A stretch of 64,000 bases of DNA from NCBI GenBank assembly GCA_001244265.2, contig CDLV01000011.1, positions 186,001 through 250,000 on the forward strand, written 5' to 3'. Below the pieces are notes generated by a model. It was given only the letters and a program-made list of their open reading frames with translations. It had not been told where the DNA came from and made no database searches. Shown here one piece after another: positions 40,737-55,317 of the stretch (its first letter is position 1; each line of letters begins with the position of its first letter). The DNA is from Microbotryum violaceum. Taxonomy: Eukaryota. The position numbers and the translations under genes are program-made.

Positions 40737-41068
40737 TTTGACGGGACCAGGCGGTGATCGGCGCGCACCGTCGAGCCTAAGGCGCCGCAGCATGGGAGTA
40801 GTAGTGAGAACTCGAGTCCCAGCCTGCGATCTGCCTTTCGAGGAGCGGGTTTCGCGCGCACGGTCCCCTCGTTCGAGGCGATAGGGGATCGAATGACCTC
40901 TGCAATCCAATTTCCTGTGCTCCCCCCATGGTACAGTTATCCGAGAAACGAGAGCAAGTTCGGGCTTCCTTGTCAAAGGCCTCACAGTGGGAGTCACTCG
41001 AGTTCTTCTGTCGCTTACACGCTCGGCATTCTCCGGGTCTCAGGTGCTCCCTCGATCGGCGCGCCGAA

Positions 41069-43977
41069 CAGTGTATGAGGAATGGAACGCTACCGGAGGT
41101 TCGGATGAATTGCATGGTGATCATGGCGTAAGACTAAGGATACAAGAGTGTTGAGGGCTGATTTTTAAGGCTACAAAACCCGCAGTGTGAACGTGCACAG
41201 GAGGGGGACCCAGGAGGACTCGGAAAGGCGCGAGAAGAAGGAAGAAGGAAGAGGGAAAAGACCACCGCACTAGAGTGGTGGATTTATGAGCAGGGCATTC
41301 CGTTGACCTGGCAGGACTGGTCATCGAGGGTGAGGTCGTAGCAGGCGTTGCCCTGTTCGGTCGGGACCGAGGCCTGGTTCGCGGCGCAGGTCTCAAGCAC
41401 GAACACGCTTGCGCCGTCGACGTCGGTGATCGAAGAGAGGATCGGGTCCGTCGCGTTGGCGGCGTAGCAGTTGCCCTCGACGGGGTCGAATGCACCCATC
41501 GTCAGGTTCGAGGCGTAGATGGCCTCAGCGCAGTCGTACTGATCTGCCGAGTCGGTGTTGAGCACGGAGAGCGAAGCGACCATCGAGTCGGGGTAGTACG
41601 ACCAGGCCGTGTCGACGGCCGAAGCGGGAGCGGAGGTGTCGACGACGCAGGCGTTGTCAGAGAGGACCCAGCCGTTGTTGCAGTCGCTGACGGTGCCGTT
41701 GGCGGCGCAGCTGGCGGCGTTGGGGTCAAAGGTCGAGCAGGACGAGCAAGTACCGTTGTTGAGGAAGTCACCGTCGATGCAGGTCGTCGCACCGTTGAAG
41801 AGGTCGCACGTAAGCGAGTCCTGGTAGGTCGAGGCGCAGTTTTGGCAGACTCCGTCTGAGGGGGCAGCAGCAGGTGGAAGTGAGGGTCAGTCAAGGGTGC
41901 GAGTTTTCAAAGGTGCTTCAACACAGATAGGGACTGACTGAGGTTTCGGAATTGCAATCCGGTGCAGCTGGTGAGGAGGGTCGAGCAAGCGGACTTGTCG
42001 GCGGTCAAGGTGCACGACGAGGCGGTGAGGGTCACATCGCGGCAGCGAGTCTTGGCACTGGGAACGAGCGCGTTGTTGGTCTTGCACGAGCCGAGGACCA
42101 TGACGGTCGAATCAGCGTCCCAGGTGAGCTTGGGCACAGCCGTGGTCGCGGACGACGAGGTGGAGAAGCACGTCAACGAGCTCGTGTCAAAGACGGCGAC
42201 CTGCGAGCCCTTGCTGACGGCGCCGCGACCGCAGATGATCGGAGTCTGGACGTTCGAGTCGTACGAGACATCGGGGATCGACGACGCAAGGTAGTAGGAC
42301 CAGGCCGAACCGAGCACGCAGGACTTCTTGTCGGCCGAGACGGTGTACGGCGCCGTGCAGGCGGTGACGACTGTGGCGCTGGTGCAAGTCGTGGCGAACG
42401 AGTTGACGGACGTGCAAGCAATGCAGTTATTCTGGCCCGAGTTGAGTTTCAGCTGTGGGTGAGTCAAGCGAAGAAGCAAAACAAAATGTCAGGACGCGAT
42501 CGTCGTAGCGCGGTATCAGAAGCGCGCCGCCAACCAGCCAGAACTCACGTAGGCTCCCGAATTGCAGGTCGCGATCTTGCCGGCGGTGCAGGTCGCGGCG
42601 AGGTTGTCGAATCGGTTGCAAGTGACGCAGGTGCGGGTGCTTGGAGCGTTGACGAATCCGGTGGGGCAGACGCTCGCGCACTTGCCGGCAGAGAGGAAAC
42701 CGGTGTTGCTGCGAAGGGGTAGCAAATCGGGCCGGGTCAGCCTCGGAGAGCGCGTCAGGGGATGCGCGCGCCCGCGAGGGCCGGGAGCGGTCTCGCCGGC
42801 CACCCGAGAACAGACTCACCATTTGGTAGCGGCGGAGAAAGAGCATGTTGCGGCTCCGGGGAATTTGGACGTGCAGGCCGCGCAGACATTGTTGTTGTTG
42901 AATGTACTTGCGGGGCAAGTTGTCACGCCTGAGAGAGAGAGATGAGTGGAAGGGTGCGAAGAGCGCGGAGCAAAAGTCAGCTCTCCGAGATATAGGGGGC
43001 CTGGTGCAACCACGCGGGCGACGCGCTGGAAGCCGAGTTTTCAACAAACGTACAAGCTCCGTTGGAGAGGGAACCAGTGGCGCTGCAATACAGAGAGAAG
43101 GGGGGGGGGAGGTGACTTAGTTAGTAAGCGGGAAAGGGAAAATTTGACAATGTCCAAGCTCCACCATCAGCTCTTCTGCCACCGCGGACTCACCATCGCA
43201 AGGCCGCAGTCGCCGTGCAGGTCGAGGCGCCGGGAAACTTCCATGAGCAAGGCTTGCAGGCCTTGTTCTGGGGCAAGGGGTATTGGCCGGTACCACGGCA
43301 AGTAGTGATCTTTTGACGGCGCTGGATGCTCCTGCCTTGGGGGCATGGATGGCGGCGGCGTCGGCGACCGAGGTCAAGGACACGACGGCGAGCACCGAGG
43401 CGACGGCGGAGGAGAGCATGAGCATGGTGGGTGGAAGCGAGGGGGCAAGGAGGCAAGGAGGAGCACGGGGACCGGGATCAAGGTGGGGAAAGAGGAGTGG
43501 AGCGGAGCTGTGAGTGGGAAGAGGGAGAGAGGTGAGGCCGACATGGCGGTCGCTTTAATACTTGCCCCCGACGAGGGGGGAGCGACGACGACGGGGAGGG
43601 TCAGGCGGCCCAACGAGTTGGGCCTACCGACCCTCGGTGTCGTTCCGACGTGAAGATCCGACGCGACTTGCCCGTTTCGATGCACCAAAATCCTCCCATC
43701 ACATCCAACTCAAATTTTAAATTCCAAAGCGGATGCCAAGTCGGGACACTGCACCATATTTGTCTTCGACCTCGACCCGGTTCAGCGTCGGGTCCAAGTC
43801 GGCGGCACCACGGATCGACGCGACAGGGATGGTCCTGCTTGTAAGCGGAAGGATTTCGACGACTTGGGACGAGCCACACTAGTCACTCTAGGCGCTAGGC
43901 GGAAGCGTGTGGCCTGCCGTCGGCCACGCGAGACGCACGCGCGCGCGCGCGGAAGACAGGTCGAAACCGCGTCCGGA
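41069..43977 (-). repeat. Left arm of 2,909-bp inverted segmental duplication
   Basis: Reverse complement of 48449-51357; the ORF track shows mirrored identical peptides. Only two 1-nt homopolymer differences were noticed. Confidence 0.97.
41284..43425 (-). pseudogene. Secreted CxxC-rich protein gene, copy A (frameshifted in exon 1 as assembled)
   Basis: Mirror of 49001-51142, but with a run of 5 G (43339-43343) where the intact copy has 6 C (49083-49088). This shifts the frame right after the signal peptide. Confidence 0.8.
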
Positions 43978-44513
43978 CTCCGGAGGCGGGCCTGCGCCCT
44001 TGCGCGCCTTGCGAACGAGGGCGGCCGCGACCGAACGAGGGCCAACCCAGTCCTTGGCAGGAAGAGCAAGGCCGCGCTTCGGCAGCTCCTCCGCCGGCCG
44101 CCGTGCGTCCTTTCGCGCACATTAGCGCCTGATATCACCCAACAAGCTTCGAGGTCCAAATCGCCGAGGCGCTTCGTTAGAACGCCCCGCCAGCGGTGCG
44201 CACCGACTAGGGTCCTTGTCGTACCCTTGCTACGCCGTCCGAGGTCCATCAACTACAACTCGGGCAGCAGGACACCTCGAAGTTGATCCCGGACACGGTC
44301 GTTCTCGGAGTTTCACCCGTTGCGACTCCCTCCCACTTGGACCTCGCCAACGCGAGGAACTGAGGGCGCTCTCGGCGATACTGCACCACCCAACACAGGG
44401 CATCACGGCTCCCCACCTCGAGTCTCTGACTGTTCATCGTCCATCATCACCGCAATTGGGACGCGCCGATACGACCTCTTCGTCGACGCCAATCCGCGTG
44501 TCCACGCTTCATC

Positions 44514-46596
44514 ATGCGGACTCCAGTGCGGTCTGTTAATACCGCCGCCGCCGCGGTGCTCCTCCTGCTTTCGTTCACCGTTGCTGTTGAAGCGGCTGCC
44601 ATTATGCCACAAAGAATGGCTGTAGTACCTCGGGCAACAGCAAGGGCGACAAATTGCCGTGGTACAGGTCAATACCCTCTACCGCAAAAAAACGTCTGCA
44701 AGCCTTGCTCGTGGAAGTTTCCCGGCGCTTCGGTCTGTTCGGCTACGGCCGCGCTGCGATGGTGAGTGGGTCGGCGCCAGGACTTTAAATACCGCGGTCG
44801 GAGCTACGGGGATGCCCAAAATCGTCCGTTGAAACGGCCTATAACGTATGCAGTGCGACTGGATATCTCTCGAACGGCCTTTGTGCGTATGCTGAATCCC
44901 ATGGCTGCCTCCTCACTTCGTATATGCGCAAGTGTGACTAATCAAACCTGCTCCTCCGGCCTGCTCAGGCGTGACGAGGTGCCCCGCCAGTACATTTATT
45001 GGCAACGGAGCATGTTCCCCGTGCTCAATCAAATTCCCTGGGGCCGCAACTTGTGATGCGAATGCAGCCACAAAGTGGTGAATATTATCGGGGACGTGTT
45101 CGGTCCCCCAAGAGGCTGAAGCTGACCTATACATGTGCCGGCACTTCTGCGCAGCACCATCGGATACCTTTCTGGAGGCAAATGCTCGAGTGTCTGCCCC
45201 GCCGGATTTGTCAACGCTCCCAGCACCCGCACCTGCGTCACTTGCAACCGATTCGACAACCTCGCCGCGACCTGCACCGCCGGCAAGATCGCGACCTGCA
45301 AGTCGGGGGCATATGTGAGTCGCAACCCATCAGGAACGCTCGGTGATCAACTGGCGCCTCGCGAAGATTTACACGAGCGATACCTGTCTTTGCAGCTCAA
45401 TTCCAAGCAAAATTCATGTGTGCCTTGCAACTCCGTCAACGACTTTGCTTCCACTTGCTCTAGCGCGACTGTGGTCACCGCATGCATTGCACCGTACATG
45501 GTGTTGTCCGACAAGAGATCCTGTGTCCTTGGGTCAACTTGGTCCTACTATCTCGCTGCGTCGATCCCCGACGTCCCTTATCAGTCTAACGTTCAGACAC
45601 CCACCATCTGCGGGCGAAACGCCGTCGGGGAAGGGTCGCAAGTTGCCGTGTTTGATACCAGTTCATTGACTTGCTTTGCCACTTCGACTTCTGGGGCCTC
45701 GCTACTTCCCAACTTGATCTGGGATGCCGACTCGACGGTTCTCGTCTACGGCACGTGCAAAACGAACAACCTCATCGCTCGCGCGGCGAGGGCGCGTTGT
45801 CGCGACGTCACTCTTACCCCAACGTCGTGCACCTTGGCGAACAGAGCTTCTTGCTCCTCTCTTTCGACTCCCTGCTTGGGGTCCCAGTTCCGCAACTTCA
45901 GTAAGTTTTTCGAGGAACCTGCTTGCATGCTCACACACATTCTCTAGAAAAAATCATAACCTGACGATCTCCTTTTGCGTATAAAGACGGGGTATGTCAA
46001 GAATGTGACACGGCTTACAGTGAATCCAGGACCTGCGATCTATTCGACGGTGCGACGTCCTGCATTGACGGCACATTCCTCGTCAACGGAACATGCAGCT
46101 CGTGCGCCGTTTTCGATCCGAACGCTTCCGAATGCTCGAGCAACGGAAACCTCGGAGGCTGCAACGCCGGATGGGTCCTATCGAACAATACCTGCGTCGT
46201 TGACACGACCTCATCTGGTCAGAATGCCGAGACAGTGTGGTCGTTCTACTTCAATTCGACTATCCAAGGCCTTCCGGTCGTGAGCCGCAACGCAAGCGAT
46301 CAGTTCGCTTGTGCTGACGATGTACTCGTGGCCAACTATACCTTGGGGGCTTACGACGCCTCAGGCAAGATTTGCTGGGCCAACAATGCCACCCGTACGC
46401 TCACCGGCTCGGAAACGGACTCGGTCGGGGCGAGCATCTACCTGATCACACACTGCGCTACCACCAACCGGACAGTGGGTGAGTTCCGGGAGTCCGCGCG
46501 ATCGCATTGAGACCAGACGCTCATTTCATCTTTATGCATTATTCCTCGGCTGCTTCAGAATCCAACTGCTACGAAATCGTTACTGATGATGGTTGA
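44514..46596 (+). CDS. Secreted CxxC-rich protein, diverged paralog B
   Basis: Signal peptide, then CRGTGQYPLPQKNVCKPCSWKFPGASVC. It has the same five intron positions as copies A and C, plus an extra 3' intron (~46479-46558); the 3' end is tentative. Confidence 0.85.
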
Positions 46597-46711
46597 TTTC
46601 GACTTACTGACGCTGTCTGCTTCCGACGTTCCCCTGATGGCGTTCTTCATTTCTCCAACCCTCTCATCTGCATTCTCCGTCAGCTCTCAGTCGCACCAAG
46701 CGATACTGTAG

Positions 46712-46821
46712 CAGTAGAAGTCAAGGCAGCGGCGCACCCAAGTCAGGCCGGTGGCGGTTCTCCATCCTGTTTGGAGAGCCACGGCGGGCGGACTGATGCG
46801 CGGCCACGTTGACTTCTACTG
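46712..46821. mobile_element. Putative 110-bp MITE
   Basis: CAGTAGAAGTCAA (46712-46724) and TTGACTTCTACTG (46809-46821) form a perfect 13-bp inverted repeat that extends imperfectly to ~25 bp; TAG lies on both flanks. Confidence 0.55.
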
Positions 46822-48170
46822 TAGCCCTTACGCAACCTGTAGCCTTACCCAACGTCTCTTTTAGCAGCATATTCTCCCGGAGTAATGGAACCCTCATCAA
46901 TTTTATAATCAACTGCTATTGCTCGTCAGATTCTAGGCTCGCTTCAAAGGGGCGACTTCTGATGACCTTACATCCTTACAAGGAGACCTGCCTTTCCAGA
47001 GGCTGTTGGCTAGCGAAGGGTATATAATCCAAATATGATTAGAGTTCTACTAAAGCTTGTCCAGTTCTTCGTCGCGATACACAACGTCCTACTATGAAAA
47101 CAACAACTTCGAGGCGCTGTGCGCAGCACAACGACCGGACCGTGAGAGCTGCCAGGCAATGTGAATCTGAGGCAGGTGCGATCCTCATAGCCTCATCTGG
47201 AGCGATACGGCTACATGACGTTTATCGAGCAGTTCAATCATCGTAAGAAGCTGCGTGGTGTCGCACTGAGCCTAGCCACCACTTTTGCTATGCGGCGGCA
47301 CGCCTTTCAAGCTACTTGATCGGCCGCGAACACGTATTGCCGGCTGCAAGGGGCGCGTTGGTATCTACCTGGGTTCTCGATACGCGGAATGTTCCCGAAC
47401 CTGATATAGCGCCACGGGTTCGTCATCGAGTAGTAGGTATCATCCGAAGAGGGGCGATGCCCACCTCCCCCACCTTTTCAGGCACTCGAGGAGGCCCCGT
47501 CGATCTCGGGACGTAGAGAGAAACCTTCTGCACGTTTCAGGCACTTTCAAATTCCTGGATTTTACCATACCGAGTCCGCCTGATTTTCGCTAAATCTGCC
47601 TGATTTCTGCTGATTCTGGGATCTCGAGTTCGATGTCGACGATGGTTGACGCGCGACCGGATCCGTCGGAACCTTTTCGGTAGGGGGTCAGGCAGTCAGG
47701 CTCCAGTCGGGGCCGGTCCGGATCGCCCGCTTCCGTGCGGGCGCAGGACAGTCAATTTATTCATCGTGATATGGTGGGTGATATACACGGGTAGCAATTG
47801 AGTTCGAACAATTTTGATCGCGAATTTTGACCGGTCCCTCTCGCGCTGCAGGAGTCAACGACGCGGTCAAAGCCATTGCTCAACGCATTTCTTGCAATAC
47901 TATGAGACCCTGAACACGAAAACACAAGCTGGCTTCCCGATTCCCCGTATGGCTGCGGACCAACTTGCCCCATGCAAGGAGGGTGGACGTTGCAACCTAG
48001 ATCAGGCGGGCCACGGTGGTCCGACTCTCCAGCAAAGCCCCTTTAGGGACGTTCCTAGTGGGAATGCACGATCCTTAGCAACGGGAGGGTGCGCCTGTAG
48101 GTCGGTACGCCCCCTGCCTACCTTACACTGTTTTTTGGATGGTCTCTGCACCGAGGTGGGGGGTGCATAG

Positions 48171-48448
48171 TCGTGATCGGCAGGTGCCTTGCGTGCCGTC
48201 CCCAGGCATCGACAACTCTATTTCCACCTCCCTGTGGCCCCCGTGGCCCAGTTTCGCGCGATCAGGCGGCGAACGACCCAAAGAGATGCCCGGATAACAT
48301 CAGGATTAAGGACTCGCCACTGGCCAATCGTGATCGGCAGGTGCCTTGCGTGCCGTCCCCAGACACCGACAACTCTATTTCCGCCTCCCTGTGGCCTCCG
48401 TGGCCTGGTTTCGCGGCCCGGGCGGACGGCTCAAAGAGATGCCCGGAT
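48171..48448. repeat. Two-copy direct repeat (~121-125 bp units, 157-bp period)
   Basis: TCGTGATCGGCAGGTGCCTTGCGTGCCGTCCCCAG...CAAAGAGATGCCCGGAT at 48171-48295 and 48328-48448. Confidence 0.9.
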
Positions 48449-51357
48449 TCCGGACGCGGTTTCGACCTGTCTTCCGCGCGCGCGCGCGTGCGTCTCGCGT
48501 GGCCGACGGCAGGCCACACGCTTCCGCCTAGCGCCTAGAGTGACTAGTGTGGCTCGTCCCAAGTCGTCGAAATCCTTCCGCTTACAAGCAGGACCATCCC
48601 TGTCGCGTCGATCCGTGGTGCCGCCGACTTGGACCCGACGCTGAACCGGGTCGAGGTCGAAGACAAATATGGTGCAGTGTCCCGACTTGGCATCCGCTTT
48701 GGAATTTAAAATTTGAGTTGGATGTGATGGGAGGATTTTGGTGCATCGAAACGGGCAAGTCGCGTCGGATCTTCACGTCGGAACGACACCGAGGGTCGGT
48801 AGGCCCAACTCGTTGGGCCGCCTGACCCTCCCCGTCGTCGTCGCTCCCCCCTCGTCGGGGGCAAGTATTAAAGCGACCGCCATGTCGGCCTCACCTCTCT
48901 CCCTCTTCCCACTCACAGCTCCGCTCCACTCCTCTTTCCCCACCTTGATCCCGGTCCCCGTGCTCCTCCTTGCCTCCTTGCCCCCTCGCTTCCACCCACC
49001 ATGCTCATGCTCTCCTCCGCCGTCGCCTCGGTGCTCGCCGTCGTGTCCTTGACCTCGGTCGCCGACGCCGCCGCCATCCATGCCCCCCAAGGCAGGAGCA
49101 TCCAGCGCCGTCAAAAGATCACTACTTGCCGTGGTACCGGCCAATACCCCTTGCCCCAGAACAAGGCCTGCAAGCCTTGCTCATGGAAGTTTCCCGGCGC
49201 CTCGACCTGCACGGCGACTGCGGCCTTGCGATGGTGAGTCCGCGGTGGCAGAAGAGCTGATGGTGGAGCTTGGACATTGTCAAATTTTCCCTTTCCCGCT
49301 TACTAACTAAGTCACCTCCCCCCCCCCTTCTCTCTGTATTGCAGCGCCACTGGTTCCCTCTCCAACGGAGCTTGTACGTTTGTTGAAAACTCGGCTTCCA
49401 GCGCGTCGCCCGCGTGGTTGCACCAGGCCCCCTATATCTCGGAGAGCTGACTTTTGCTCCGCGCTCTTCGCACCCTTCCACTCATCTCTCTCTCTCAGGC
49501 GTGACAACTTGCCCCGCAAGTACATTCAACAACAACAATGTCTGCGCGGCCTGCACGTCCAAATTCCCCGGAGCCGCAACATGCTCTTTCTCCGCCGCTA
49601 CCAAATGGTGAGTCTGTTCTCGGGTGGCCGGCGAGACCGCTCCCGGCCCTCGCGGGCGCGCGCATCCCCTGACGCGCTCTCCGAGGCTGACCCGGCCCGA
49701 TTTGCTACCCCTTCGCAGCAACACCGGTTTCCTCTCTGCCGGCAAGTGCGCGAGCGTCTGCCCCACCGGATTCGTCAACGCTCCAAGCACCCGCACCTGC
49801 GTCACTTGCAACCGATTCGACAACCTCGCCGCGACCTGCACCGCCGGCAAGATCGCGACCTGCAATTCGGGAGCCTACGTGAGTTCTGGCTGGTTGGCGG
49901 CGCGCTTCTGATACCGCGCTACGACGATCGCGTCCTGACATTTTGTTTTGCTTCTTCGCTTGACTCACCCACAGCTGAAACTCAACTCGGGCCAGAATAA
50001 CTGCATTGCTTGCACGTCCGTCAACTCGTTCGCCACGACTTGCACCAGCGCCACAGTCGTCACCGCCTGCACGGCGCCGTACACCGTCTCGGCCGACAAG
50101 AAGTCCTGCGTGCTCGGTTCGGCCTGGTCCTACTACCTTGCGTCGTCGATCCCCGATGTCTCGTACGACTCGAACGTCCAGACTCCGATCATCTGCGGTC
50201 GCGGCGCCGTCAGCAAGGGCTCGCAGGTCGCCGTCTTTGACACGAGCTCGTTGACGTGCTTCTCCACCTCGTCGTCCGCGACCACGGCTGTGCCCAAGCT
50301 CACCTGGGACGCTGATTCGACCGTCATGGTCCTCGGCTCGTGCAAGACCAACAACGCGCTCGTTCCCAGTGCCAAGACTCGCTGCCGCGATGTGACCCTC
50401 ACCGCCTCGTCGTGCACCTTGACCGCCGACAAGTCCGCTTGCTCGACCCTCCTCACCAGCTGCACCGGATTGCAATTCCGAAACCTCAGTCAGTCCCTAT
50501 CTGTGTTGAAGCACCTTTGAAAACTCGCACCCTTGACTGACCCTCACTTCCACCTGCTGCTGCCCCTCAGACGGAGTCTGCCAAAACTGCGCCTCGACCT
50601 ACCAGGACTCGCTTACGTGCGACCTCTTCAACGGTGCGACGACCTGCATCGACGGTGACTTCCTCAACAACGGTACTTGCTCGTCCTGCTCGACCTTTGA
50701 CCCCAACGCCGCCAGCTGCGCCGCCAACGGCACCGTCAGCGACTGCAACAACGGCTGGGTCCTCTCTGACAACGCCTGCGTCGTCGACACCTCCGCTCCC
50801 GCTTCGGCCGTCGACACGGCCTGGTCGTACTACCCCGACTCGATGGTCGCTTCGCTCTCCGTGCTCAACACCGACTCGGCAGATCAGTACGACTGCGCTG
50901 AGGCCATCTACGCCTCGAACCTGACGATGGGTGCATTCGACCCCGTCGAGGGCAACTGCTACGCCGCCAACGCGACGGACCCGATCCTCTCTTCGATCAC
51001 CGACGTCGACGGCGCAAGCGTGTTCGTGCTTGAGACCTGCGCCGCGAACCAGGCCTCGGTCCCGACCGAACAGGGCAACGCCTGCTACGACCTCACCCTC
51101 GATGACCAGTCCTGCCAGGTCAACGGAATGCCCTGCTCATAAATCCACCACTCTAGTGCGGTGGTCTTTTCCCTCTTCCTTCTTCCTTCTTCTCGCGCCT
51201 TTCCGAGTCCTCCTGGGTCCCCCTCCTGTGCACGTTCACACTGCGGGTTTTGTAGCCTTAAAAATCAGCCCTCAACACTCTTGTATCCTTAGTCTTACGC
51301 CATGATCACCATGCAATTCATCCGAACCTCCGGTAGCGTTCCATTCCTCATACACTG
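48449..51357 (+). repeat. Right arm of 2,909-bp inverted segmental duplication
   Basis: Reverse complement of 41069-43977; covers the promoter, all exons and introns, and the 3' flank. Confidence 0.97.
49001..51142 (+). CDS. Secreted CxxC-rich (furin-like/VSP-like repeats) protein, copy C, intact
   Basis: Six exons (~49001-49233, 49345-49373, 49499-49607, 49719-49878, 49975-50488, 50571-51142). Signal peptide MLMLSSAVASVLAVVSLTSVADA, a dibasic RR site, many CxxC repeats and two AWSYY-initiated modules; no TM or GPI tail. Confidence 0.88.
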
Positions 51358-51831: not shown

Positions 51832-52856
51832 ATGAGCAGTTCCCCTCTGTTGGGCGTCGAGGCGCTGTTGTTCGACGTCTTTGGGACGGTCGTCGATTGG
51901 CAAGGATCGGTGCATCGACAGTTGCAAGAACGCGTCAAGCAGGACGAAATAGGTGGGTCGGTGTGAAGCTTCTTTTTCACAACGACCGGAGAGCGTCGGG
52001 ATCGCTCATGTGCTGCAGGAATGCCTGGGCAGAGCTCGGCTCGATCGACTTGCTGCAATTCACCAAGCAGTGGAGGGCTGGCTATATGCGCCGAACGTGA
52101 GCTTGCGGCGGCCCTCTCCTGACTATACACGGGAGACATATCATGATTACTGATAGTCTGTACCTCATCCGTCAGTCGGGAGATCGCCGGTGGGGCTCCG
52201 GGCCCTACGAATGTCGACCAACTGCACCGCGAGGTGAGCCCCACATTTCTTTGCCGACCGAAACGACGTCATCTGATGGTTCCCTCGGCTTACCTCTGAC
52301 TCCTATGCCACAGCTACTCGACGACCTCCTCAAGCAAGAGCAATACTCCCCTCTCCTCAAAGCATGGGACGAAGCCGCTTTAACCACCGTCAACCTCTTC
52401 TGGCACAACCTCGACGGATGGCGCGACTCGTCCCCCGGTCTCAGCTCCCTCGGATCTTTCGCCGACCGTCGAATCCTGAAAGGTACTCTCTCCAACGGTT
52501 CTGCCCGTCTCTTGATTGACGTCGCCAAACATGCTCAACTCGATTGGGATTTCATTTTCTCCGGCGACTTGTTGAATTCGTACAAGCCCAACCCGGCGAT
52601 GTATTTGGGGGCATGTAAAAAGTTGGACTTGGAGCCAGGGAAGGTGGCGATGGTCGCGGCGCATATTCAGGATTGTCGAGCGGCGAAGAGCTTTGGGTTG
52701 AGGACGATTTACGTACCGAGGGAAACGGAGGATAATCAGGCTATTGAGGACTTTGAGGCGGGTAAGGAAGGGGTTAAAGGGTGGAAGGAGGGGGGTGAGG
52801 TCGATGGAGTTGCAAAGGGGTTGGATGGGATTTGTGATTTGTTGAGAGGAGACTAG
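51832..52856 (+). CDS. Haloacid dehalogenase type II-like HAD hydrolase
   Basis: ALLFDVFGTVVDW, WHNLDGWRDS, TLSNG, YKPNPAMYLGA, MVAAHIQD, GLRTIYVPR. Confidence 0.92.
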
Positions 52857-53270
52857 GGATAAATGGTGTTGAATACGTGATTTGAATGAGAAATTACTTT
52901 TGGAGTGGTAGGCGATGTGCTTCGACGGAAAGAGCTTTTCCGAGGAAAGTGCTGGCCGGCTCCTCGAGCCTCTTTGAGCCTTCGGCCAAGGTCCCGTGAC
53001 CTGGCGCGTCGAGGCTGTGTCTCCGGCTTGGAATGCTCGTTCGACTCGAGCGATCGTCCTCGACTCGACGACGACGACCATCAAAGACCGTTATCCAACA
53101 ACATAGAAGCCCTTTTCGGATCTGGTCTACTCAAACAGGACATTCGTGCAGCTGTGCTCGAACGATTGCGACGATTTTGTGCTCCGAGTCGGGCCGGGGA
53201 TTGCGATCGCTCAACTCCCCAGTTCGAGCTCGCGTGGCTGTTTGACGACACACAGCCATAACACACGGCA

Positions 53271-55317
53271 ATGGGAGCCTTCAAAAACTTGTTCAAGACC
53301 AATCACTCGAAGCGTGATTCTCCAACCTCTACCTTGTCACCGTCACCCTCTTCGCCCTCCTCCTCGTCCTACTCCAACACCACCACGGGCCCGAACCCGA
53401 CGACAGCAACCTACTATGCGCCGCCTTCGTCACGTCCAGTCTGGGCACCCAACACCGAGTCCACATCCTTCCGACCTTACACCTCTGGTTTCGGCCCACG
53501 CAACCTCGGTGAATCCCGACCATGGTCCCACTACGCCTCAGCCTCGAGCAATAGCAGCCCTCCACAATTGCAGACTCGAGCGTACCCACCCGTCGTCGCT
53601 TCGGCAAGCACACCGGACCTCGCTGCGATCGGCAACATGATGTGTCATCAAATGAGCACCGTTCGACTCGATTCGGAAAGGGGAAGGGACATGTGTTGGT
53701 CGTGCCATACGCCACCGGCACTCGCCACACCTCCAAAAACGTCGAATAGGCCACCATTGCCGGGGCCTCCAAGCTCCTCGAGCAAGCCGGCAATCTCGGC
53801 TTCAACCTCGGGTTTGCCTCAACAGTCCGTGAGGGCTGTTCCAGGGAAGATTCACCCCTCATCTTGGAAAGATAATGTCCAAAATCCGGTCTCAGGAACC
53901 TATCTTCCCTCGAGGCCTTCTCAGCACTCGTACCATTCTTCTACCCCTACCGGACCTCCCCCGATACCACCGAGGAATTTGTATCCCCCGCCTTCATCCA
54001 CAGGCTCGGCACCTTCTCGACCGACTTTGAGACTGTACCCACAAGCGATTCCGCTCGATCCTAAAGCAACTTTGCCTTCCCCGCCTAGAGGCCTCGATCC
54101 ATTCCGTCAGACCGTGCCGCCCTCTCCTCAACTACCTGCTGGCCTTGCCGATCGAGGAGGAGCCGGAGCCGAGATCGGGCTGGGTCGACCTGGGTCGATG
54201 CAACTTTTCCATCCGAGTGGTCAATATCGCAGTAGAAATATCACACCTCAGCTTCCGGGTGCATTTCCTAAAAGTGCTGGGATCGAGGCTACGACTTTAC
54301 CTCCGGCTTCAGCGGGCATCAAACCCAAGCGACAGGCCAACAAGCCGATCGAGGCGCCGACCCAGAAGATTGTCTCGCCTACTTCGAATCCGGGAAGGGA
54401 GAATGTGACCCCTGCCAAGACATCTTCATCAGCTCAGCGGCGGTCGGGCACCTCCAAGGCTTACACTCCTACCTCTACTTCATCCAGCAAACCTCGTGTC
54501 CAATGCAGCGGCACAACGACCTCGAACAAGCGCTGCACGCGCATGGTTGAATCCACCTCGGGTGACCTCTCCTCCCCTGGTCCTTTACACAATCTCCATC
54601 TCGCTTCCTATTGCCACCAACATCTCAAAACGTCCCTTTCGGAACCGGGGTGTTTTGTTTTGTCGAAAACGAGGGGCGGGGAACATTGGGTCGAGTATGC
54701 GGATTGGATTTTAAGTGATTTGGACGAGAGAACGAAAGTGTTATTGAGGCGTGAGATGGCGAATGCGGTTTCGGGGATGGATTCGGAAGGGTACGTGGTA
54801 GATTTTAAATCATCGTAAGATCGTGCCCTTGCTAACAACTTTTGAGTTCCATTCCCTTTCGGAGCGAAACAGCTACCTCTACGTCCATGAATTTCCGCCC
54901 ATGTCCAGCACCACCTCCACGACCTACTTCAAGATCGGTCGCTCCGTCAAACCGCTCTCGCGTCTCTCGCAATGGAAGAACCAATGCCCTTCTCGAAGAC
55001 CGATCGTAAGGGACGTATTACCCCGAGCGAACTCTACATCGAGGCCCGTCGGAGCGACGATGCAGTTCGCCGAACGAGGGGCGCCGAACCATCATCGGTG
55101 GGAAAGGTTGGTGTTGATCGAAGTGGCGGGAAGAGCAAAGATGATGGCCTTGTGCTCGGATCAAGGCAAGAGGAAAGGAGACACGGGTTCTCCGCCATGT
55201 GGGGATTGTGGTCAAAGGCATATCGAGATGTTTGAACTCGGGAAGGGGGCGTATGATTTGTGGGTCAGGGATGTGCTCGAGAGGTGGGAGAGGTGGTGTA
55301 GTGATGTGATCGGGTGA
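53271..55317 (+). CDS. DUF1766/T5orf172 (MUG113-like, GIY-YIG-related) domain protein with Pro/Ser-rich N-terminus
   Basis: QCSGTTTSNKRCTR..YCHQH; intron 54791-54872; EGYLYVHE..FKIGRSVKPLSRLSQWKNQC, ERLVLIE, CGDCGQRHIEMF. Confidence 0.82.

Follow-up and report, generated by a model that had tools for sequence, protein, structure and literature searches.

Architecture of the Palindromic Locus

The analyzed window, that is, the whole stretch of 64,000 nucleotides from Microbotryum violaceum (contig CDLV01000011.1), contains a gene palindrome with a left arm at 41069-43977 (minus strand) and a right arm at 48449-51357 (plus strand). Both arms were delimited by self-comparison of the window, in which they form the single long inverted match, and by global alignment. 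Each arm is 2,909 bp long, and no substitutions were found between them. The arm-to-arm differences are two 1-bp indels, both in G runs, located near 41860 (intron) and near 43339 (exon 1). Similarity between the arms ends sharply at both ends, except for a 14-bp remnant just beyond the outer ends, the score of which was reached by 0 of 300 shuffles for a 100-bp search window and by 38 of 300 for a 500-bp one.

Each arm carries 552 bp upstream of the ATG, a gene for a secreted Cys-rich protein with five introns, and the 3′ end of this gene. The right copy (49001..51142, plus strand) has six exons (49001-49233, 49345-49373, 49499-49607, 49719-49878, 49975-50488, and 50571-51142) and a TATA-like word upstream, at about 48866. 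Its product, a protein of 538 aa, is identical to MVLG_02676 of Microbotryum lychnidis-dioicae. The left copy (41284..43425, minus strand) is interrupted, as assembled, by a 1-bp frameshift in the exon-1 G run.

The arms enclose a unique spacer of 4,471 bp (43978..48448), defined by self-comparison and by contigs of public sequencing runs. The spacer holds a middle paralog (44514..46596, plus strand) with seven exons (44514-44761, 44854-44882, 44969-45077, 45155-45314, 45396-45900, 45987-46478, and 46559-46596); its product of 526 aa is identical to MVLG_02675. The middle and arm proteins have 62% identity. The initial annotation described a palindromic cassette with inverted copies of the arm gene around a diverged paralog, and its coordinates proved to be exact. 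It also described this paralog as sharing intron positions with the arm gene; five positions are indeed common, but the middle gene has an additional sixth, last intron. This intron was precisely lost from the arm gene and is kept in the middle gene and in both distant paralogs. One of the latter is located in contig 8 and the other in the contig of the cassette, about 57 kb downstream, which brings the family to at least five loci. No inverted duplication was found around either of them within the stretches examined. Neither an eroded extension of the arms inside the spacer nor promoter or 3′ homology between the arm and middle genes was found (for the latter, 156-219 of 300 shuffles reach the scores).

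Two further repeats are located in the spacer. A dispersed-repeat remnant of about 110 bp with 13-bp inverted ends (46713..46822) accounts for 41 of the 57 matches between the cassette and the genome. An imperfect tandem duplication of about 125 bp with 88% identity, detected by self-comparison (48171..48448, plus strand), adjoins the inner end of the right arm.

The left neighbor, MVLG_02674, is a Tht1/KAR5-like nuclear-fusion gene (37800..41064, minus strand, an approximate range mapped from published coordinates; likely ATG at 40736), and its 5′ end adjoins the left arm. The right neighbor, MVLG_02677, encodes a HAD-family hydrolase (51832..52856, plus strand), as assigned by a profile and a published table. 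This table (PMC4469406 supplement) lists the cassette region as autosomal, with a Tht1-like nuclear-fusion gene to the left and a HAD hydrolase to the right. The earlier placement of the cassette between conserved housekeeping genes thus does not suit the left neighbor.

Layout in Public Sequencing Runs

Four public runs from four studies (X3, X13, X15, and X17, 4 of the 24 listed) were compared with the window over 40000-48448, that is, over one arm and the spacer. All four runs have a loose end at 41069 that reads into the right outer flank, and a strand-changing joint from 43977 to 48448. Both flank sequences are present at both arm ends in the run contigs; several of the junction contigs enter the arm by 30 letters or fewer, under the 31-letter bar for a bridge, and none spans the cassette. 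In all four runs the arm collapses to contigs at about twice the flank depth, less clearly in the low-depth X17: 27.9 versus 12.6-14 in X3, 98.5 versus 45-46 in X13, 46 versus 21-22 in X15, and 7.3 versus 4-5 in X17. Read depth over the arms, a check proposed together with the initial annotation, therefore agrees with two arm copies.

An extra G behind 43338 was found at full depth in all four runs, so an assembly slip most likely accounts for the frameshift of the left copy. At the other indel, near 41860, no run contig has the right-arm form. These two homopolymer slips are evidence of local imperfection of the assembly and could be taken to favor a palindrome made by fold-back or polishing, an outcome that the initial annotation had itself named as fatal. 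Such an artefact can be given almost no credence: the flanks on the two sides are unique, both of them occur at both arm ends, the depth is doubled in independent runs, and annotations of other species show the same layout.

Arm Protein and Its Expression

The arm protein contains 44 Cys residues, six CxxC motifs, 24% Ser and Thr, and a predicted signal peptide. Neither a hydrophobic C-terminus nor a CRGKA motif was found, and the last 30 residues are polar. The structure model is confident at residues ~39-225, and residues ~52-174 match the Fu1-Fu2 repeats of RSPO2 (Foldseek E 5e-3; Z 7.8, rmsd 4.1, 99 aligned residues); no Foldseek match was found at E 0.001 or better. Residues ~436-504, a low-confidence region of the model with pLDDT of about 70 at best, match PAN/apple/WSC folds with Z 5-6.5 in two fold searches, under the bar of 8, and with an Atlas TM of 0.60. 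The best 17 rows of the fold search have Z 4.4-6.5, and their titles are what we take to be PAN/apple/WSC-type folds. An internal repeat (E 6e-13) implies a second PAN-type domain at ~226-325. The modeled protein can thus be described as furin-like Cys repeats together with two probable PAN/apple folds. For the five family proteins, no Pfam family was found above the cut-off and no PAN family matched at E up to 10; an Atlas search with exon 5 gave no usable match. The relatives found over most of its length comprise Microbotryum records together with three other proteins, two of them partial, and matches to the Cys repeats only extend to Rhodosporidiobolus and Leucosporidium.

All expression data were taken from published tables. 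MVLG_02676 has FPKM values of 482 on water agar, 2.1 in rich medium, and 8.1 in late infection. In a second study (PMC5919739 supplement), mated cells gave 49 and 125, buds at stages 8-10 gave 0-4.6, and late samples gave 21-49; the middle gene behaves alike. The arm gene is high in starved and mated cells and nearly off in young infected buds, so the data appear to fit a protein in the surface or matrix of starved, mating-competent cells better than an effector of biotrophic growth. The initial label of effector sits poorly with the near silence of the gene in buds at stages 8-10. A connection with Microbotryum fimbriae was considered and dropped; the word is absent from the available text of PMC4469406.

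Distribution in Microbotryum Genomes

The arm-middle-arm order was found in five species, including M. intermedium. The corresponding records are g08907, g08909, and g08911 in M. saponariae, g10390, g10392, and g10394 in M. silenes-dioicae, and 5076, 5077, and 5078 in M. intermedium. A published table (PMC6831777 supplement) extends this order to M. violaceum var. paradoxa and, for three species, again lists a HAD gene and a KAR5-orthogroup gene as the flanks. In annotations with separate head and body models for the arm gene, the resulting order is body-head-middle-head-body, as expected of inverted arms. Such mirror order was read in three species; for M. intermedium and M. v. paradoxa the inverted orientation of the arms is assumed. 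All of this cross-species evidence consists of protein records and table rows. According to a preprint (10.1101/2021.07.20.453045), M. intermedium split off about 20 My ago and M. silenes-dioicae 0.42 My ago. A simple recent duplication absent from close relatives, the other outcome named against the initial annotation, is contradicted by the presence of the order in five species.

Probable Concerted Evolution of the Arms

Arm proteins of one species differ at 0 of 248 columns. Over the same 248 shared columns, the M. lychnidis-dioicae arm differs from those of M. silenes-dioicae, M. saponariae, and M. intermedium at 1, 9, and 28 positions, respectively; the middle gene shows 0, 8, and 24 differences in the same comparisons. 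Thus, between species, the arms and the single-copy middle gene diverge at about equal rates. One protein record covers both arm loci in M. silenes-dioicae, and likewise in M. intermedium. In M. saponariae the arm pair differs at 1 of 450 residues, and the two head models, both extending into intron 1, have one and the same sequence. The claim that palindromic arms homogenise and that the locus is recombinationally active is borne out by these counts of 0 differences within species versus 1-28 between species.

In a tree built on the 248 shared columns, from which 13 columns mis-annotated in one row and two partial proteins were excluded, the arm and middle genes of four species form separate groups; the M. 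intermedium arm joins the contig-8 group with only 47% support, and arm monophyly across all four species is at most tentative. A grouping of the M. saponariae and M. silenes-dioicae arms in an earlier tree was rejected as due to a shared mis-annotated N-terminus.

Comparison among strains points in the same direction. Relative to the window, 10 arm sites and 22 spacer sites are changed in the run X15, and 3 and 14, respectively, in X13; both have the same junctions as the window. Without exchange, the arms of the window would be expected to differ from each other at about 14 sites (X15) or about 9 sites (X13), and the observed number is 0. With spacer divergence as the clock and selection on coding sites ignored, the probability of zero arm difference is 6e-7 (X15) or 1e-4 (X13). 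Arm-specific variants of X13 and X15 may be hidden, since the arms are collapsed and bubbles dropped in the run contigs; the argument uses the window's own arms, in which polishing can make near-identical sequences look identical. Variation among strains is lower in the arms than in the spacer, but the difference is not significant (P 0.37 and 0.08).

Within-species identity could also be produced by repeated recent duplication, i.e., by birth and death, with one arm lost and regenerated from the other in each lineage and no steady conversion. This is very unlikely, since the same junction sequences were found in 4 of 4 runs despite divergent arm alleles, the arm-to-middle distances agree within 1-2 bp between two species, and the flanking genes are the same in three. 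Much more likely, the locus is an autosomal gene palindrome of old age that evolves in concert through gene conversion between its arms.

The proportion of G and C at the third positions of codons (GC3) is 0.84 in the arm gene versus 0.65 in the middle gene and 0.56-0.72 in eight other long ORFs of the window, the arm value being the highest of the genes compared. Intron GC is 0.59 in the arm and 0.52 in the middle gene. At each of the three arm sites where X13 and X15 share a change relative to the window, the window has A or T, which does not speak in favor of GC-biased conversion. Optimal codons are reported to be GC-rich, and codon selection in a highly expressed gene explains the high arm GC3 as well as biased conversion does. 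RIP-like mutation of repeats has been reported in this species; no depletion of CpG or TCG was found in the arms, the observed/expected ratio of CpG being 1.16 there and 1.02-1.12 in the flanks.

Probable Exchange With the Middle Paralog

The middle gene and the arms have 80 identical bp in exon 4, at 45222..45301 (plus strand) in the middle gene and at 49786-49865 in the right arm; the next longest exact match is 17 bp. Within the tract, the middle gene differs from the arm at 0 of 80 positions, and the contig-8 paralog differs from both at 13 of 80. Where the arm and middle genes encode the same residue, 165 of 314 codons are identical, with a longest identical run of 27, a length reached in 0 of 100,000 permutations. 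In X3 and X15, the tract is also assembled as a separate contig with 3-4x depth. By these sequence comparisons, it is probably a gene-conversion patch. The GC3 of the middle gene rises to arm-like values within the tract, so the transfer probably went from arm to middle.

The proposed sequence exchange with the middle paralog is thus represented by this one case, a single event and not a mosaic. Such a patch would also be expected of a diversifying cassette of the Giardia VSP type, in which the middle paralog acts as a donor that patches variation into the expressed arms. This explanation is highly improbable: beyond the tract the longest match is very short, the arm and middle genes group separately in four species, few arm differences were found among strains, and the middle gene is intact and expressed, its orthogroup having a dN/dS of 0.41 and no positive selection in a published table. 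The initial description of the locus as diversifying is not supported; the process removes differences.

Orientation of the Spacer

Distances to the nearest transposon in a published table were used as a ruler for orientation. The orientation of the window predicts 2,641 bp from head to middle and 3,171 bp from middle to far head, and the flipped form predicts 1,325 and 4,487 bp. The observed distances are 2,641 and 3,171 bp in M. lychnidis-dioicae and 2,640 and 3,171 bp in M. silenes-dioicae. In an older M. lychnidis-dioicae scaffold the gap is 1,794 bp versus at most 1,089 bp allowed by a flipped spacer. The window's orientation was thus found in 3 of 3 readable records, from two close species 0.42 My apart, with the two M. 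lychnidis-dioicae records possibly non-independent of each other or of the window. In M. v. paradoxa the spacer is at least 4.4 kb longer and its orientation is unreadable, and for two species the records carry no coordinates. No second orientation being found in the readable records, the term flip-flop spacer is not upheld by them.

A functional switch, in which the spacer inverts, perhaps on starvation, and alters expression of the middle gene or of a neighbor such as KAR5, has some appeal. In length (2.9 kb) and identity the arms resemble the 2-kb inverted repeat of Ogataea polymorpha, for which no recombinase is known to be required (PMC5720833). In addition, starvation induces the arm gene, and one neighbor is a nuclear-fusion gene. 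Such a switch is nevertheless very unlikely in view of the single orientation in two species. Moreover, a flipped spacer places the middle gene beside an identical 2.9-kb arm with its local promoter context unchanged, so a flip could act only through long-range effects. No centromere-like repeat block was seen beside the cassette, which has gene-dense flanks on both sides, and inversions are rare relative to conversions in human palindrome P6 (PMC3723533). No recombinase or transposase family was found among 42 scanned ORF stretches, mostly from the 72 long ORFs of the window.

Neutral orientation polymorphism, in which occasional crossovers flip the spacer without effect, is compatible with a conversion-maintained palindrome. 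Flipping is established behavior of long inverted repeats, rare inversions are known in P6 (PMC3723533), and the longer spacer of M. v. paradoxa shows that spacers do change; a flipped record was found in neither of the two closely related readable species. On balance, such polymorphism is a real possibility, somewhat short of an even chance.

The boldest reading treats the cassette as a maintained recombination device. Starvation-driven transcription of the head-to-head arms would cause breaks, the repair of which would flip the spacer and exchange patches with the middle paralog in mating-competent cells, and would tune a new furin-repeat/PAN-type surface adhesin or the adjacent KAR5. We consider this very doubtful. 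If true, the cassette would represent a flip/flop system located outside MAT loci; we know of no other such system in basidiomycetes.

Proposed Maintenance of the Gene Pair

Under concerted evolution by gene conversion, the favored reading, the locus would preserve a gene pair and would neither switch nor diversify. A break in one arm would be repaired from the other arm 4.5 kb away, mostly with resolution without crossover, and new arm mutations would be either erased or copied into both arms. Rarely, the repair template would pair with the middle paralog and leave a short patch, such as the 80 bp in exon 4. Owing to the inverted layout, a crossover within one chromatid would only flip the spacer and cause no deletion, so that the pair persists; spacer inversion, if it occurs, would be a neutral by-product. 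More tentatively, two copies may be kept by selection for dosage: starved, mating-competent cells would produce large amounts of a cell-surface or matrix protein composed of a furin-like Cys stalk and two PAN/apple-type binding folds. In M. intermedium, both arm records end at residue 410; if this stop is real and shared, dosage of the full protein does not keep the pair in that species.

No paper on this locus was found among those listed, and no mention of MVLG_02675, MVLG_02676, or MVLG_06512 was found in main texts, subscription papers and bioRxiv supplements being outside the range of the search. The string "palindrom" is absent from the available text of PMC4469406 and PMC5967549. The cassette thus appears to be a new fungal case of a conversion-maintained gene palindrome. 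Known examples of such long-lived palindromes come chiefly from the sex chromosomes of animals, along with a few loci in Drosophila. The present one is small and autosomal, and the selfing fungal genus in which it is located has population data and many long-read genomes. Conversion rate, GC bias, the crossover-to-conversion ratio, and escape from RIP-like mutation could be measured here over about 20 My with short PCRs. The locus also exposes a strongly starvation-induced secreted family, which is split into two gene models by several annotations and appears as one copy in short-read assembly.

Comparison With Known Systems

Giardia VSPs have a C-terminal membrane anchor with a CRGKA tail and form a large, varied family of which one member is expressed at a time. 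The arm protein is like them in its secretory signal and its CxxC-bearing Cys-rich repeats. Unlike VSPs, it has neither the anchor nor the tail and only six CxxC motifs, five genes were found in the family, and the copies are homogenised. The arm and middle genes are both expressed in bulk RNA, unlike the one-at-a-time expression of VSPs. The comparison with VSPs made in the initial annotation was given up on account of the missing anchor and tail and the five family members. A terminal-inverted-repeat transposon was also considered and rejected: the genome search gave no further copy of the arm ends, no transposase was found in the 42 ORF stretches, and there is no obvious duplication at the outer ends.

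Palindromes of the Y chromosome are much larger than this cassette. Human Y palindrome P6 is like it in having arm identity above 99.9% by conversion; P6 is further characterized by conversion tracts of about 2 kb, a GC-rich trend, and rare inversions (3 versus 56 conversions), and it lies on a non-recombining chromosome, whereas the cassette has 2.9-kb arms in an autosome-labelled region (PMC3723533).

Among fungi, the MAT locus of O. polymorpha resembles the cassette in its identical 2-3 kb inverted repeats around a gene-bearing segment and its link to starvation. There, a centromere silences one position, so that orientation matters; in the cassette neither such an asymmetry nor a second orientation is visible (PMC5720833). 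The pheromone genes of Cryptococcus are likewise inverted basidiomycete duplicates, for which conversion was proposed as in Y palindromes. They are small and located in the MAT locus, and conversion is a proposal there, whereas the arms of the cassette contain whole genes on an autosome (PMC12510652).

The closest similarity was found with the Drosophila pairs Hsp70Aa/Ab, Hsp70Ba/Bb, and Amy-p/Amy-d (PMC3924832). Like the cassette, these are autosomal, tightly linked mirror-image duplicates older than a species split, and they are more alike within than between species via ectopic gene conversion. Homogenisation of Amy is confined to the coding sequence, whereas that of the cassette covers introns, promoter, and 3′ end (PMC3924832). 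Unlike in the Hsp70 and Amy pairs, the spacer of the cassette holds a diverged paralog that probably received a patch, and the host is a selfing fungus. Lacking the tested features of VSPs and of transposons, the cassette shares the tested defining features of palindromic pairs of the Hsp70/Amy type.

Structure of the Arm Gene and the Arm Boundaries

The arm gene, MVLG_02676, differs from the diverged middle paralog of the spacer, MVLG_02675, in the precise absence of the last intron (uninterrupted exon at window 50571-51142 in the arm gene vs intron at 46479-46558 in the middle gene). This intron is common to the middle paralog, the paralog on contig 8, and the paralog downstream of the cassette. 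In M. intermedium, both arm protein records (P0011; 5076 and 5078) stop at residue 410, immediately ahead of a conserved Trp, which reflects either a stop codon copied into both arms or an annotation that is too short.

At both inner junctions (window 43970-43985 and 48440-48455), the word TCCGGA is followed by a near-copy of itself. Directly beyond the outer arm ends, a 14-bp remnant is common to both sides. MVLG_02674, the Tht1/KAR5-like gene, has an annotated 5' end that maps within ~50 bp of the left arm's outer edge (window 41030-41069), so the left arm may contain the promoter of this gene. Published expression tables show a ~170-fold increase of KAR5 expression in late infection relative to culture.

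Repeats, Mobile-Element-Like Features, and a Nearby Gene

The spacer contains an element of ~110 bp with 13-bp inverted ends (window 46713-46822). This element corresponds to part of a 305-bp unit, present as near-identical tandem copies on several contigs (genome stretches L015, L016, and L017). Directly past the end of the window, a repeat of ~1 kb (L006:2427-3491) was found, having 99% identity to an LTR-like repeat in L015. Additionally, the contig that holds the cassette carries a near-perfect hairpin of 373 bp (L010:6867-7239), located downstream of the fourth paralog at a distance of ~1.2 kb.

A T5orf172/MUG113-domain gene (window 53262-55317) lies two genes away from the right arm; this domain is nuclease-like. 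Inside the window, a low-GC intergenic stretch contains a 200-bp hairpin (13816-14018) and a partial second copy of it (14401-14491), both of which are MITE-like.
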